In this document: in pieces, positions 10,617 to 14,596 of the stretch | Layout of the letters: each line of letters starts with the position of its first letter | How positions within the stretch are numbered: the stretch's first letter is position 1 | IMG/VR virus record: IMGVR_UViG_3300042470_001171 | Span: 8,814 to 72,813 of that record | From: a virus | Taxonomy: Duplodnaviria > Caudoviricetes | Length of the DNA: 64,000 bases | Strand: one strand, 5' to 3' | The notes under the pieces: generated by a model | The model's database searches: none | Told to the model about the DNA's origin: nothing | The model's input: only the letters and a program-made list of their open reading frames with translations | Made by a program: the position numbers and the translations under genes

Positions 10617-11063
10617 CTAGGCCTCCTCCCGGGCAACAGCCCAGATCGGGCCAGACGGGACACAATTACGCCGTCCTAGGTATAGCTGGAATTTAGGCCG
10701 GGCCAGCGCCTTGGCAATGGTGCGGATCTGCTGCAAGTCACCCCGCAGGGTAACGGTAGAACTGAAGTCGCTCAGGTAGTGCCGGGTGGTGATGGCATTG
10801 CGGCCTGGGGCCCCGTCATAGGTGATAGCATCGCGGATGGTGTGGAAGTCCTCCAACACTCCGCCATGGCTTGTCTCGCCTATCTCCACCTGCAGCCCGT
10901 CCAGTTCCGGCGCTGACTGGCCTCGACGTATCCCCAGGGCAGCACACAACATGCCGCGGATCGCCGACTCAGTTGGGGCATCCTCCGTCAGTCGTTGCTG
11001 CAGCCGTGGCCCGGTGCCATAGGCAGCCATGGGGCCTGCTAGCTTCAGGACTAGCCTAGGCAT
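10617..11063 (-). CDS. cas5: Type I-E Cas5 (CasD), short (148 aa)
   Basis: LKLAGPMAAYG, PTESAIRGMLCAALG, DFHT, TTRHYLSD, LYLGRRNCVPS. Confidence 0.93.
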   Translation of the reverse strand: MPRLVLKLAGPMAAYGTGPRLQQRLTEDAPTESAIRGMLCAALGIRRGQSAPELDGLQVEIGETSHGGVLEDFHTIRDAITYDGAPGRNAITTRHYLSDFSSTVTLRGDLQQIRTIAKALARPKFQLYLGRRNCVPSGPIWAVAREEA

Positions 11064-12309
11064 AGGCCACCTCCTTGCCAGCACCCATGGCTACTTGCAG
11101 GGCCCCATCAATGGCCCCGTCCAGGGGCTGGCCGAACCAGCCTGGCTGGGTAGTCACTTCAGCTTTGTACAGCGACTTGTCGCCGTAGATGACGTTTAGC
11201 CGGTCCTGGTACTGGCGCAGCGCATCAGCGGCCTGGTGCGGGATACCCTGGGCTAGGAAGTCGTCGTCGGTGGTGCAGCTATTGATTGACACATGGAATG
11301 CCGGTGCCAAGGTGTAAGGCTGAGCCGCTGTCACCCGCACCTGCACATAGTCTGGCCGAGTTAGATGGGCATGGCTGCGCACATAGCCAGTCGGCAGGGT
11401 AGTGCAGAATGCTGTCAGGAATCCCCGGGCAAACTGCTGGGCCAGCTCGGGGTCGCCGATCAAGCGGGCCAGCTCAGTGACATTCAGGTTGGCATAGCGG
11501 TAGTAGACGGGCGAGATGATGGGCAGCTCCCCCAGGTGGCCAGCGCCAGACTTAGATTCCTCATCCAAGGGTTCAATGTCATCTTCGGCGGTGAAAAAGT
11601 CCGGCTCACCAATCACTTGGCCCATGCCCTTGACATTGGTGATACCAAAGGAATTAACCGAGATCGCATCCGCCACTTGGGTGCAGCCATCGACGCTGGC
11701 CTCAGTCAGGCTAGCCATCATCCGGCCAAACAGTGCGACATCCCCTGGTACTTGCTGGCCTAGCTTGCCCAGAGCTTTGCGGATGCCCTGCAAATCCCTG
11801 GCGCTAGGTTTTTCAGGCGCTGGAGCCTTCTTGGGGTTTATATCCAAAGCCTCCTGGTAACGCTGGGCCCGCTCCAGCATATCTCCCAGTAGCACCGAAT
11901 GATCGGCGGCCAGAGCGGCAATGGTGTCCAGCTCATGCTCAGACAGGAATAACAGGTTGCCGCTATCCTCCAGCATGGCCGGGATCAGGTTGTCGTCTTT
12001 GAGGTTGAACAAGCCCAACAAGAACCGAGCCACCATCAAGTTATCAGCGTCACCGCCCAAAAAGCCAGTGCAGCAGCAGGATAGGCGACTGGCCAGGGCG
12101 ACGTCATGGCGACGGCTGCGGAAAGCCAAGGCCTTGCGGTCAACGGCCATCCATTCCCCATAGTGTTGCCGGGCGGCCCGTTTCTGGGACTGGCTGGAGA
12201 GCCGGGCCCGCCAGCTACCACCGTATTGGATCTTTTTGGGTGCCCCGGACTTGTCCCGGTTGGCATTGCTGGGCGGTAAAGCGTGGATCAGGTGCACTTC
12301 GATAAACAT
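11056..12309 (-). CDS. cas7: Type I-E Cas7 (Cse4/CasC)
   Basis: IEVHLIHALPPSNANRDKSGAPK..YGG..RARLSSQSQKRAAR, DVALFGRM, DFFTAEDD, GAGHLG, YYRYANLN. Confidence 0.95.
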   Translation of the reverse strand: MFIEVHLIHALPPSNANRDKSGAPKKIQYGGSWRARLSSQSQKRAARQHYGEWMAVDRKALAFRSRRHDVALASRLSCCCTGFLGGDADNLMVARFLLGLFNLKDDNLIPAMLEDSGNLLFLSEHELDTIAALAADHSVLLGDMLERAQRYQEALDINPKKAPAPEKPSARDLQGIRKALGKLGQQVPGDVALFGRMMASLTEASVDGCTQVADAISVNSFGITNVKGMGQVIGEPDFFTAEDDIEPLDEESKSGAGHLGELPIISPVYYRYANLNVTELARLIGDPELAQQFARGFLTAFCTTLPTGYVRSHAHLTRPDYVQVRVTAAQPYTLAPAFHVSINSCTTDDDFLAQGIPHQAADALRQYQDRLNVIYGDKSLYKAEVTTQPGWFGQPLDGAIDGALQVAMGAGKEVAYA

Positions 12310-12339
12310 AGGGTTCCTCCCTTAAGGACTGGGCCTGGT

Positions 12340-12481
12340 GGCCACCCCCACCGCCGTGGGGCCTTTTTGGTTGTCGATCCACACCCACCGGAGTAGGTTG
12401 TATGACGTGTCTGTGCAGGAGACACCCCCACCGGAGTGGGGCCACTGCTCAGCCCTGAGACACCCCCACCAATGCTGGCGC
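12340..12481 (-). CRISPR. Four repeat hairpins between cas6 and cas7 (one degenerate, inside the cas6 3' end)
   Basis: Anchors 12347, 12384, 12427, 12465; periods 37, 43, 38; handles GTGTCTC/GTGGATC. Confidence 0.7.
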
Positions 12482-13063
12482 GGGCTCAGGCGTAGTCACC
12501 GCCGCCACCGGCAGCAACGACAGCAGGCCGCAGCCGTACGCCTTTTCCCGGCCAATGCCGTTGACCATGGCATCAGCTAGCCGCTGGCTATGGGTCACCG
12601 TCAGATACCCGTCCACTACCGATACCTCAATGGGGAATGAACGAGTGTAATGCTCACGGCGCACATGATCATGGTGTTTTTGCACTCGCACCTGGCGCAC
12701 CTCGAAGGTAGCACCTAGCCGATCCTCCCTGGCGGCCAGCCACTCAGCGGCAGGCACCGGATAGCGCCGACACCGGTCATCCCGGTTACTTTGGGCCACA
12801 GAGTTGAGCCCCAGGCGGAAGCGGTAACGCTCCCCAACATTAAGCAGGTTATGCCTAAACTCCAGCTTCACCTGGGCCTCATAGGCTTTAGGCCACTTGG
12901 GCTTTTCTACCGACTGCACCAGGATGGATCCGCCGTCAACCCGGAACAATGCCCCGACTTGGCTGCGGGGGTCTGGGCCCAGATCGTCAGGAAAGCCCGC
13001 CATCACATAGCGGTGCAGGCTTCCATGGCCATCTGGCCGGGCAAAACGAGAAAGGTATAGCAT
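12449..13063 (-). CDS. cas6: Type I-E Cas6 (Cse3/CasE) crRNA endoribonuclease
   Basis: YLSR, LH, LFRVD, ILVQS..KP.W, YRFRL..N, DGYLTV, Gly-rich GIGREKAYGCGLL. Confidence 0.95.
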   Translation of the reverse strand: MLYLSRFARPDGHGSLHRYVMAGFPDDLGPDPRSQVGALFRVDGGSILVQSVEKPKWPKAYEAQVKLEFRHNLLNVGERYRFRLGLNSVAQSNRDDRCRRYPVPAAEWLAAREDRLGATFEVRQVRVQKHHDHVRREHYTRSFPIEVSVVDGYLTVTHSQRLADAMVNGIGREKAYGCGLLSLLPVAAVTTPEPAPALVGVSQG

Positions 13064-13707
13064 TATCGTGATCCTCCGTAAACGGTTCTGTAATTGGCTT
13101 GCCGCAGCCAGTCCACCGCAGCAGTCTGGCTGGACAAAGTAAATGTGTTGCTATCGAACCGCACCACTTGCAGCTCGACGCCCAGGCGGCCCTGGACTAG
13201 CTGGGCACCCCGGGCCTGACGTTGGCCACCTACGATCAGGCGGTGCAGAAAAGCTTGGTCTTCGGCGGCAATAGGGCCATCCTGAAAACTGCGCTTGATG
13301 CGCCCCACATGATCGCAAATGTCTGCCTTGGCCCGCTCGAAGCTGATCGGCACCCCAGCAATGCAATAAGTTGGTCGGGGCACCGCTGGCACTATCTCCC
13401 AGGTGAAGCTGGACAGCTCCCCGCTATCGCGGTGGGTCCGTAAGCGTTCCACCGTGGACTTAGCCGGTAGGCCAGTCTCATGGAATAGCACCAGGTGCTT
13501 TTTGCTGGGCCGAGTCCAGCGTCGTTGGTAACTGTTGCCCTGGCCGATGGCCTCCCGCACCTGGTCGGCAGGCTTTACCTCCACCAGCGTGTCGTACTGA
13601 GCACCGTCGACGACTATGTCAATGCGGTCCTGACCTACGGGCACCTCAGTGCGGCCACCATGGCGGACGGCCCAAGCGTCCCGAATAATGTCATGGGGGA
13701 AGTTCAT
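13063..13707 (-). CDS. PD-(D/E)XK-family nuclease, translationally coupled to cas6
   Basis: E..RIDIVV..LVEVK..AIGQGNSY (D, ExK, QxxxY); stop overlaps the cas6 start. Confidence 0.75.
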   Translation of the reverse strand: MNFPHDIIRDAWAVRHGGRTEVPVGQDRIDIVVDGAQYDTLVEVKPADQVREAIGQGNSYQRRWTRPSKKHLVLFHETGLPAKSTVERLRTHRDSGELSSFTWEIVPAVPRPTYCIAGVPISFERAKADICDHVGRIKRSFQDGPIAAEDQAFLHRLIVGGQRQARGAQLVQGRLGVELQVVRFDSNTFTLSSQTAAVDWLRQANYRTVYGGSR

Positions 13708-13777
13708 CTGTGGTTTTCCAACCCAATTAATGGCTTATAGTTGGATGGTAACACTTTTTTGTTATCTGGAGAACTAC

Positions 13778-14596
13778 ATGACCGACATCTTTACCTACCC
13801 CTGCATTGCCACCCCCCAGGGCACCGCCAGCCTAGCCGATCTGCTGGCCAGCCCTGAAGCCTACACCGACATCAGCGAACCCCACCTCACCCGCCAGGCG
13901 TTCCTACGCCTGCTGCTAGCCATGGCCAGTGTCACCATGAAAAACCAGCCCCTATCAGGCGATATGCCGCTGTGGAACAACTGGGGCGAGCCAGGCTTCC
14001 TGCAGGTAACAGGCCTGCCTGAGGCCTCCACCCGTAGCCCCCAAGCGATCATGGATTTGATGGATGGCTCCGGCCCCGCCCTGGTGCCCCGCAACTTCCT
14101 AGCCGCCCCAACCGAGGCCGACCTGATCAAGGCGCTGATCACCGCCTACTTCTGCGATAGGCCCGGGCTCAAGGCTCAGGTGAAGGGCCTGCCAGTATCT
14201 GGGCCCAAGCCTAGCCACATGGGCCAGCTAGTGGCCTGGAAGTGGGGCGATACCCTAGCAGACTTCCTGGAGCTCAACGGCGTGGCAACGTCCTCCTGGG
14301 TGCCCTGGTGGAAGCGCCCCATCGACTACGGCGAGACGCTGGACGCTGACAACCCCGATCTGGTGCAATACCTCATGTGGCCATGGCGGCGACTCCAGGC
14401 ATTCCCTGGCGGCATTGTCGTGGCCGCTGGCGTGAAATGCACCGTAGCCGATCCCTGGGCAATTGCCCGGGCCAGCCTGCGCCACCTGAGCAAAGGGCTA
14501 GCCGAGTTCGAGTTGACCGGGCCTGCCAGGGTGTCGGGCATGGTGCTGAACCAGGCTAGCCCGCTGGCGTGGAAGGAATGGGTGATAGCTAGGTAG
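13778..14596 (+). CDS. cas8e: Truncated, divergent Cas8e (Cse1/CasA)-like protein, 272 aa
   Basis: Cse1-like N-terminus DIFTYPCI..ASLADLL..AFLRLLLAM, FLQV, GDTLADFLELN, YLMWPWRRL, DPW; adjacent to the cas operon. Confidence 0.72.
   Translation: MTDIFTYPCIATPQGTASLADLLASPEAYTDISEPHLTRQAFLRLLLAMASVTMKNQPLSGDMPLWNNWGEPGFLQVTGLPEASTRSPQAIMDLMDGSGPALVPRNFLAAPTEADLIKALITAYFCDRPGLKAQVKGLPVSGPKPSHMGQLVAWKWGDTLADFLELNGVATSSWVPWWKRPIDYGETLDADNPDLVQYLMWPWRRLQAFPGGIVVAAGVKCTVADPWAIARASLRHLSKGLAEFELTGPARVSGMVLNQASPLAWKEWVIAR

Follow-up and report, generated by a model that had tools for sequence, protein, structure and literature searches.

A phage-borne CRISPR locus derived from type I-E, with a shortened Cas8e, a predicted PD-(D/E)xK nuclease and no recognisable Cas3

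The window analysed here, a stretch of 64,000 nt covering bases 8814-72813 of the 72,813-bp virus record IMGVR_UViG_3300042470_001171, carries a phage-encoded CRISPR locus of five genes (coordinates are window positions unless a contig position is stated). Three of the genes were assigned by profile to the type I-E subunits Cas5e, Cas6e and Cas7e, a fourth encodes a Cas8e-like protein that appears reduced to its N-terminal domain, and the fifth encodes a 214-aa protein with a predicted PD-(D/E)xK nuclease fold. Genes for Cas3, Cas11, Cas1 and Cas2 were not detected by profile searches of the whole contig. We read the locus, with confidence that is about evenly divided, as a Cas3-independent mini-Cascade derived from type I-E, whose dedicated nuclease would cut the R-loop and which would be used in conflicts between mobile elements.

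Gene content of the locus

Four of the genes form an operon on the minus strand, in the order nuclease-cas6-cas7-cas5. The 214-aa PD-(D/E)xK-fold gene comes first (13063-13707), its stop overlapping the start of cas6e (12449-13063, 204 aa), and is followed by a long form of cas7e (11056-12309, 417 aa) and a short form of cas5e (10617-11063), which is 148 aa long from the ATG used by relatives and 155 aa if its open reading frame (ORF) is extended to a GTG start at 11084. The reduced cas8e (13778-14596, plus strand, 272 aa) is divergent, and the two transcription units are separated by 70 bp of AT-rich sequence (13708-13777; GC 0.37 against a window average of 0.57), in which a GGAG precedes the 13778 ATG and no match to the sigma-70 consensus was found. 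All five reading frames are intact in the ORF listing. This layout is the one described by a first-pass annotation of the same DNA, whose account of a phage-encoded operon, a 70-bp AT-rich intergenic region, a short Cas5, a long Cas7, a truncated Cas8e-like protein and an added nuclease gene is borne out by the ORF listing and by the profile and structure searches given here.

The identities of Cas5e, Cas7e and Cas6e are based on matches above the curated cut-offs of the Pfam and NCBIfam type I-E models, with which PADLOC agrees. Cas5 matches Cas_Cas5d (E 2.7e-29), its sole Pfam match, and TIGR01868 (107.9 bits; cut-off 68.95); Cas7 matches Cas_CT1975 (E 1.3e-67) and TIGR01869 (184.2 bits; cut-off 178.05); and Cas6 matches CRISPR_assoc (E 1.6e-31) and TIGR01907 (52.2 bits; cut-off 45.2). 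In PADLOC, Cas7 and Cas5 match I-E models only, and Cas6 is better matched as Cas6e (2.2e-32) than as type IV Cas6 (1.6e-14). A histidine at position 17, which we take to be the catalytic residue of Cas6e, is invariant among six lineage representatives, as is the C-terminal glycine-rich loop. The two unusual lengths can be located within the alignments: Cas5, which measures 144-148 aa in all six representatives, covers only residues 5-158 of the 224 of E. coli CasD, the C-terminal third being missing, and Cas7 residues 2-380 correspond to residues 3-334 of T. fusca Cse4, relative to which it has additional residues in its first half and a C-terminal extension. Among named canonical Cas7e proteins, the closest comes from a cyanobacterium (33% identity).

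The 272-aa protein itself has no family match in Pfam, NCBIfam or PADLOC, and its assignment relies on homologues and on structure. Among the 13 members of its family (38-96% identical), six match the Cse1 family PF09481, with a best E of 6.5e-13; the homologues are 264-290 aa long, except in two clusters whose members are shorter, at 170 and 220 aa. A Foldseek search with its AlphaFold2 (AF2) model (predicted local distance difference test, pLDDT, 59.5; predicted template modelling score, pTM, 0.71) listed 20 matches at E<0.1, all 20 of them Cse1/CasA chains. With VIA-align, the whole model superposes on T. fusca Cse1 (3wvo_C; Z 17.2, root-mean-square deviation (rmsd) 3.8 over 260 residues), where it spans residues 7-403 of 540, on residues 6-362 of 468 in T. 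thermophilus Cse1, and on residues 1-367 of the E. coli chain 4u7u_M (Z 13.0). Since the protein maps onto the N-terminal domain of Cse1 only, the C-terminal four-helix bundle is missing. The first-pass annotation had listed a product of 13778-14596 unlike Cas8 among the findings that would speak against it; by these matches the protein is Cas8e-like.

For the 214-aa protein, the AF2 model (pLDDT 90.2) predicts a PD-(D/E)xK nuclease fold (residues 1-108) followed by an alpha/beta C-terminal domain. The fold call rests on VIA-align, in which residues 4-109 are best matched by NucS (2vld_B; Z 10.1, rmsd 2.3, 93 residues), with AF1548 (1y88_A) at Z 9.4 and Can1, Can2 and Card1 at Z 6.9-7.9; the best match of the C-terminal domain (residues 108-202), 2k0m, is borderline at Z 7.5. 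Other searches were less telling: all Pfam matches lay below the cut-off and were of PD-(D/E)xK type, with no named family, NCBIfam gave none, PADLOC reached E 0.039 at best, a PDB profile search had no meaningful match, the Atlas leads were all under 0.9, and Foldseek against the PDB gave nothing at E<=0.001. Across 16 of 16 aligned homologues, D10, E21, D30, E43, V44, K45, G55, Q56, S59 and Y60 are invariant. Based on the model and on the invariant D30, E43 and K45, we place the protein in the PD-(D/E)xK superfamily as a predicted nuclease.

Few proteins belong to the nuclease family: 1.84 billion proteins yielded 13 representatives at E<=1e-3, and five of nine distant homologues run into a repeat hairpin at the C-terminus. 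The position of the gene next to cas6 is kept in the G000 group and in the relatives L014, L015 and L016, whose copies are 25-26% identical, as well as in L017, where the homologue was recognised by hhalign (99.6%, E 1.5e-23). In the window the nuclease stop overlaps the cas6 start, and in three lineages the two genes are taken to be translationally coupled.

Searches of all 72,813 bp of the contig with models for Cse2 (PF09485), Cas3_HD (PF18019), cas3_core (TIGR01587), Cas1 (PF01867) and Cas2 (PF09707) gave no match at E<=1, while control models did match. Cas3_HD, Cse2 and Cas1 were likewise without a match at E<=0.1 in four of four related records, namely the phages G001-G003 and the metagenome-assembled genome (MAG) that holds locus L008. 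One of these phages, G002, is 74,186 bp long with a 127-bp direct terminal repeat (71% complete according to CheckV) and carries its CRISPR module at the far left end. The 20 other large ORFs scanned included no SF2 helicase or HD nuclease, DnaB being the sole helicase. In L014, regular arrays with a period of 56-66 directly flank the five genes on both sides, so that no space remains for other cas genes. A highly diverged small subunit may nevertheless stand in place of a recognisable Cse2. The first-pass annotation had reported the lack of cas3, cas11, cas1 and cas2, and had named cas3 or cas11 elsewhere in the element as a finding that would speak against it; the profile searches extend the absence to all 72.8 kb, and neither Cas3-HD nor Cse2 was found in the terminally repeated G002.

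Conservation, repeat hairpins and spacer turnover

Relatives of the locus were mapped by tblastn and ORF lists, and Cas8 identities are given relative to the window. The unit of five genes was found in four divergent lineages with Cas8 identities of 36-58%, the lowest value being that of the best tblastn segment, and the nuclease gene is adjacent in three of the four. Lineage i comprises the close phages L003, L004, L005, L011 and L012, in which the unit and the hairpin positions are identical and Cas8 is 90-98% identical (leaving out L005, where the locus ends before cas8). Lineage ii, formed by L014, L015 and L016 (Cas8 48-55%), has directly flanking arrays with a period of 56-66 and repeats of ~29 nt, which is the ordinary I-E design. 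Lineage iii is L017 (41%), in which an eight-repeat array (4779-5222) lies between cas7 and cas5; the element probably represents a plasmid or phage-plasmid, not a siphophage, because it carries ParA and ParB genes beside the locus (within 501-2076). Lineage iv, L008 (36%), belongs to a cyanobacterial MAG, has the order cas8-cas6-cas7-cas5 and is followed by ~30 dispersed hairpins. L008 was the only locus found in one-genome-per-species prokaryote contigs and is the single cellular relative; of 401 cyanobacterial genomes sampled, only its MAG has this form of Cas8.

Between G000 and G002, all five genes show dN/dS values of 0.09-0.16, from which we conclude that all of them are under purifying selection. 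The first-pass annotation had also named a decaying locus as a point that would overturn it; these values, and the retention of the unit in four lineages, do not fit decay. A 204-aa gene upstream of cas8 in L008 was considered as a nuclease homologue and rejected as not homologous. About 2 kb upstream of the mini-Cascade genes in L008 (7091-8068) there is a PAPS-reductase-domain (CysH-like) gene, which may be a coincidence; CysH-like genes go with type IV-B systems (PMC11656645). The contig holds no GCGATCGC sites.

The core hairpin of the repeat, CCCAC-N4-GTGGG, occurs in 33 copies in the window against 0.24 expected, a number reached by none of 100 shuffles. On the minus strand, array A and its leader occupy 8640-9290 (array 8640-9230), with ~9 units of long repeats and spacers of ~33-38 nt at a period of 64-74. 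On the plus strand, array F and its leader occupy 15030-15650 (array 15080-15650) and begin with three long units, which give way to close hairpins with short spacers. The same leader motif opens four clusters, these two arrays and two more in the 8.8 kb ahead of the window (contig 6602-6718 and 7476-7634). In the distal part of array F and in several other clusters, the hairpins are just 36-49 nt apart. One short spacer of array F (15342-15367) agrees at 20 of 22 positions with a segment in the 3' part of cas8 from the same phage (14459-14480), and the equivalent spacer of L004 matches the cas8 of L004 at 18 of 19; the array F match is mismatched at spacer positions 1 and 4, and its function is doubtful.

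Hairpins are also found inside the operon and far from it. Sense hairpins on the minus strand lie between cas6 and cas7 (12336-12478, with cores at 12347-12360 and 12427-12440), with homologues at the same position in L003, L004 and L012, and two more stand right behind the cas5 stop (10548-10615, minus strand), at positions that are homologous in L003, L004, L005 and L012. Away from the cas locus, solitary or 37-43-nt-spaced hairpins occur at 2628-2705, 5379-5392, 16797-16866, 19748-19804, 28840-28965 and 63416-63507; the distant hairpins are mostly intergenic, and of the six non-array clusters with an assigned orientation, five are in sense with the ORFs on both sides. Small clusters of a comparable kind are present in G002, for example at 23410-23488 and 62442-62675. 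The 21 dispersed copies analysed in L008 keep their stem by compensatory changes at three of six pairs, with 95.2% of cells paired, and their covariation score was reached by none of 500 shuffles. Dispersed hairpins of this type could be sites at which Cas6 cuts phage mRNAs.

Arrays of closely related phages differ in content. Phages with 88-97% protein identity have few spacers in common, G000 and L004 sharing one. Between the arrays of L014 and L016, four consecutive spacers are shared and the rest are different, a pattern of divergence by gain and loss. Sequencing runs with at least half of the sampled words of an 8-kb stretch numbered 19, of which 17 were lake-water DNA and two were freshwater RNA libraries, and contigs of one DNA run and of the two RNA-library runs contain additional repeat-spacer units. 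A 37-nt insert was found at 15248->15213 (X1, X13 and X19) and a leader-proximal 34-nt insert at 15111->15082, and spacers of array A are replaced in population contigs. Spacers are hence gained and lost in natural populations of a phage that carries neither cas1 nor cas2, and this turnover suggests at least some help from the host.

The region is present in RNA libraries: contigs from two runs of one study span cas5, cas7, the nuclease gene and both arrays, covering 8866-9239 in array A and 15089-15545 and 15091-15697 in array F. These are Logan contigs, in which RNA ends, strand and level are not readable and uncovered parts (for example 13840-14106 in X13 and X19) are uninformative. The contigs stop beside hairpins at 12334/12351, 10617/10647, 15089/15091 and 8866, and a DNA contig bridges 12257-12500; the contig ends give a weak hint of transcript processing.

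Described systems and possible modes of action

Several described systems share features with the phage locus. Altae-Tran 2023 presented I-E systems with a Cas5-HNH fusion and no cas3, as well as a VRR-NUC nuclease fused to Cas11 in type I-E (PMC10910872); the 2025 classification named these variants I-E2 and I-E3 and added I-E5, a CRISPR-associated transposon (CAST; PMC12669027). I-E2 (see also PMC11794572) resembles the phage system in being an I-E-derived Cascade, typically without Cas3, that has another nuclease in place of Cas3, and its Cse1 (8zlu_C) is one of the closest structural counterparts of the 272-aa protein (Z 17.0). In the I-E2 structures (PDB 8yb6 and 8zlu), however, HNH is fused to a Cas5 of 388 aa, Cas8e is full-length (535 aa) and Cas11 is present, whereas the phage has a 148-aa Cas5 with no extra domain, only the N-terminal domain (NTD) of Cas8, no Cas11 and a separate PD-(D/E)xK protein. 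Membership in I-E2 was rejected because Cas5 lacks HNH, Cas_Cas5d being its one Pfam match at a length of 144-148 aa in six of six representatives. I-E3 shares with the phage an I-E module together with a nuclease of the PD-(D/E)xK superfamily, whose role is putative (PMC10910872, PMC12669027), but there the nuclease is fused to Cas11 and Cas3 is kept in some loci, while neither the fusion nor Cas3 was found here. The 16 members of the phage nuclease family had no match to Cse2 (PF09485) at E<=1, and VRR_NUC was matched neither by this family nor anywhere in the contig. The C-terminal domain of the phage nuclease is predicted to be alpha/beta, unlike the Cas11 small subunit, which is all-helical.

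Likeness to canonical I-E systems (E. coli, T. thermophilus and T. fusca) lies in Cas7e, Cas5e, Cas6e and the Cse1 N-terminal domain, and in the repeat, whose G:C-rich hairpin precedes a handle of ~8 nt. The phage system departs from them in being phage-borne, in having no Cas3, Cas11, Cas1 or Cas2, and in a Cas8 and a Cas5 that lack the C-terminal bundle and the C-terminal third, respectively. I-F2 is likewise a compact Cascade without the small-subunit 'belly', yet this smallest known type I system has no Cas8 at all, retains Cas3 and the adaptation genes, and uses another Cas7/Cas5 family (PMC12956352). The resemblance to IV-A3 is one of lifestyle, since it is borne on mobile elements, lacks adaptation genes, takes part in conflict between elements and gains spacers in trans via a host I-E module (PMC11656645). 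IV-A3 is built from subunits of the Csf family together with a DinG helicase and silences its targets without cutting them, whereas the phage subunits pass I-E-specific models. Membership in type IV was rejected, as Cas7 and Cas5 match I-E models only, Cas6 is best matched as Cas6e, and the ORFs scanned contain no helicase but DnaB. The CAST systems, I-E5 included, were rejected as well, there being no match to TniQ (PF06527) or to the DDE transposase (PF00665) at E<=1 in the contig. Scattered repeats and mini-arrays are also known from the solitary repeat units that phages use as RNA anti-CRISPRs and from viral cr-like RNAs (PMC10651486, 10.1101/2024.10.29.618823); those act on Cas proteins of the host, while the phage described here encodes its own matching Cas6, Cas7, Cas5 and Cas8.

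The phage system thus differs from I-E2 in having no HNH on Cas5, and from I-E3 in having no VRR_NUC match and, as far as the Cse2 profile shows, no Cas11 domain. In the running text searched, an I-E system without Cas11, with only the Cas8 NTD and with a free PD-(D/E)xK gene was not described, but figures or supplements of PMC10910872 (Data S2, Fig. S14) and PMC12669027 (Fig. 2c, Extended Data) may already contain it. The legend of Fig. 2c in PMC12669027 refers to variants having 'lost Cas3', and NTD and CTD are among its labels, so that a similar architecture may be shown there. A variant 'I-E4' is described neither in the literature searched nor in the text of PMC12669027 that was consulted. 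The first-pass annotation did not recognise the exact architecture and made its novelty depend on a search; that novelty proves narrower, for the system differs from I-E2 and I-E3, but I-E systems that lack Cas3 and use other nucleases are already published (PMC10910872, PMC12669027).

How such a system might work can be outlined from its parts. The arrays would be transcribed from the shared leader and cleaved by Cas6e at the repeat hairpin, and on each CRISPR RNA (crRNA) a 'belly-less' Cascade would form, with the short Cas5e at the 5' handle, Cas7e as the backbone and Cas6e at the 3' hairpin. Cas8e would join this complex with only its N-terminal domain, which reads the protospacer-adjacent motif (PAM), and with neither Cas11 nor the Cas8 helical bundle, a picture that fits the loss of the Cascade 'belly' in both of its parts. 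The mini-Cascade would open an R-loop on matching DNA, and the co-transcribed 214-aa PD-(D/E)xK protein, instead of Cas3, would be recruited there to cut the target. That the nuclease is the R-loop effector is suggested by analogy with the HNH of I-E2 and I-F4, which lack Cas3 and cut DNA by this built-in domain (PMC10910872, PMC12669027), and we see the chances of this as evenly poised. In this manner the prophage would shut out rival phages or plasmids, and new spacers would probably be added in trans by the adaptation module of the host, as for type IV-A3 (PMC11656645). The broader proposal of the first-pass annotation, a distinct I-E-derived RNA-guided effector, is upheld as regards the architecture, its carriage by a phage, its conservation and the absence of decay, and found no support as regards complex formation, the nuclease as effector and independence from the host.

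Several points weigh against a Cas3-independent cutter of this kind. Confidence in the Cas8 model is modest (pLDDT 59.5). PD-(D/E)xK folds include RNases, and CdiA-CT toxins and cap-snatching endonucleases are among the VIA-align matches of the 214-aa protein. A complex prediction for the Cas8 NTD and Cas5 with the nuclease as partner scored 0.00 against a mark of 0.32, a verdict of 'no answer' that speaks neither for nor against, and the binding of the nuclease to Cascade is something that we infer rather than read from a predicted interface. The L008 lineage has no adjacent nuclease homologue, and the homologue in L017 lacks the catalytic Lys of E-x-K, its S/Y residues being replaced as well; the mini-Cascade can thus be maintained where no active copy is present. 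The contig is 79% complete (CheckV), and Cas3 or Cas11 could come from the host. The RNA-library contigs may contain DNA. As to targets, array A and one G002 array had no match among 50,697 GenBank phage records, the L014 array had six chance-level matches there (E 0.08), a viral collection contained no exact copy of one spacer core, and 118 spacers from nine related sequences gave just 14-16-nt matches outside arrays; as these searches found no protospacer, no PAM was derived.

Some of these points bear on a rival explanation that we consider unlikely but worth serious attention, namely that the mini-Cascade is a binding-only silencer that blocks transcription or replication of its target and does not cut it, like type IV-A or Cas12m. 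The 214-aa protein would then process RNA, help in spacer uptake or do an unrelated job for the phage. Such a silencer would agree with the lack of a helicase in profile searches and ORF scans, with the missing or Lys-less nuclease in two lineages, and with the fact that type IV-A silences without a nuclease (PMC11656645). The short array F spacer that matches the phage's own cas8 at 20 of 22 positions, and is kept in L004, follows the pattern of self-regulatory cr-like RNAs (10.1101/2023.03.03.530964), but its mismatches fall within the seed. Against the silencer stand the nuclease motif, which does not vary in any of the 16 homologues aligned and is under purifying selection, and the coupling of the gene in translation to cas6 in three lineages. 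A further possibility, which we rate as improbable, is that the phage supplies a partial system and borrows Cas3 from a host I-E system, perhaps along with Cas11 and Cas1-Cas2. It would account for spacers that turn over in a phage without cas1 or cas2, for the ordinary I-E design of repeats in relatives (~29 nt, period 62-66) and for the cyanobacterial affinity of Cas7e at 33% identity, and has a precedent in the use of host I-E adaptation by IV-A3 (PMC11656645). Host dependence is nevertheless difficult to square with the MAG of L008, in which neither Cas3-HD nor Cse2 nor Cas1 was matched at E<=0.1, or with a Cas8 form seen in just one of 401 cyanobacterial genomes sampled. Moreover, Cas3 docks on Cse1, and the usual surroundings of that docking are gone here, since Cas8 has lost its C-terminal bundle and Cas5 its C-terminal third.

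The hairpins invite another explanation, a regulatory network in which Cas6e cuts polycistronic phage transcripts at dispersed hairpins and so sets mRNA boundaries or stability, and in which Cascade with very short guides tunes phage genes. In its favour are the 33 hairpin cores where 0.24 are expected, the sense orientation of five of six non-array clusters relative to both flanking ORFs, the bracketing of cas7-cas5 by hairpins in all close relatives (and in L017 a whole array between cas7 and cas5), the ~30 dispersed hairpins behind the L008 locus, and the RNA-library contigs that end at 12334/12351 and 10617/10647, beside hairpins, where a DNA contig bridges 12257-12500. On the other hand, contigs cannot reveal RNA ends, both runs come from one study, and regular arrays with variable spacers of 32-38 nt, to which units are added in populations, point to the targeting of foreign DNA. 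As a replacement for DNA targeting we find this network slightly more improbable still than borrowing from the host, although it can coexist with the mini-Cascade and its R-loop nuclease. That the locus is merely the remnant of a captured I-E locus and has no present function would explain four missing canonical genes, two shortened ones and an array F that is irregular in its distal part. It is contradicted by dN/dS values of 0.09-0.16, intact frames throughout, spacers that turn over and identical truncations fixed in four lineages down to 36-41% identity, and we regard it as very improbable indeed.

Tentatively, and with more doubt than confidence, the interpretation as an R-loop-cutting mini-Cascade can be taken one step further. 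The five genes and an array (~1,255 residues) might constitute a complete, host-independent programmable DNA cutter, with the nuclease docked on a Cascade that lacks Cas11 and the Cas8 bundle, and with Cas6e and the hairpins additionally tuning phage mRNAs, including those of the cas operon. If this were true, one CRISPR module would attack rival elements and at the same time run the RNA processing and gene control of the phage itself, and cutting by a type I Cascade would have been reached by a third independent route, after HNH fusions and Cas3. The locus would also offer a natural test of how small a Cascade can be and still form an R-loop, as it does without Cas11, the C-terminal bundle of Cas8 and the C-terminal part of Cas5. 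With ~3.8 kb coding for five proteins, which is in the range of single-protein editors, it is a candidate for a compact RNA-guided tool. From an ecological perspective, phages smaller than 200 kb are reported to carry CRISPR systems only rarely (PMC11656645), and here a 73-kb temperate lake phage and its relatives carry at least four arrays with changing spacers. Furthermore, the dispersed, structurally conserved hairpins raise the idea of a Cas6-dependent processing of phage mRNAs.

Carrier genome and neighbouring genes

Judged by its gene content, the carrier is a temperate siphophage-like genome of a lake plankton phage with two integrases. PHROGs profiles matched eight of ten proteins scanned and identified virion and replication genes in the contig: a tape-measure protein (40283-44830), a head-morphogenesis protein (35732-37642), a portal (58928-60448, minus strand), a large terminase (60439-61800, minus strand), the DnaB helicase (24550-25908) and a serine integrase (53578-54891). 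The second integrase, of the tyrosine type, is encoded at 7496-8503.

Between cas8 and array F lies an ORF of 96 aa (14675-14965) that has a counterpart in none of the related loci mapped. It is preceded by a promoter-like TTGACA-17-TATATT (14611-14639), and in population contigs it is skipped or replaced, with joints at 14583->15042 and 14677->14981-14986; the site looks like a variable cargo slot. Next to the CRISPR locus, in L003 and L011 as well as here, are a ribbon-helix-helix/BrnA-like protein (15822-16301, minus strand) and a P-loop ATPase (16874-18172, minus strand) with weak TrwB/HerA matches and a PADLOC match to mad8 (2.2e-11). Two pairs of repeats were also noted: a 52-nt direct repeat (96% identical; 9595-9646 and 9879-9930) brackets a 71-aa ORF (9646-9861), and a 57-nt repeat (81%; 10467-10523 and 16747-16803) stands ahead of hairpins at both places. 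Elsewhere in the window lie genes for a DNA polymerase III beta sliding clamp, a C5 cytosine methyltransferase and two glycosyltransferases (3592-4752, 27706-28632, 50636-51589 and 57687-58922).

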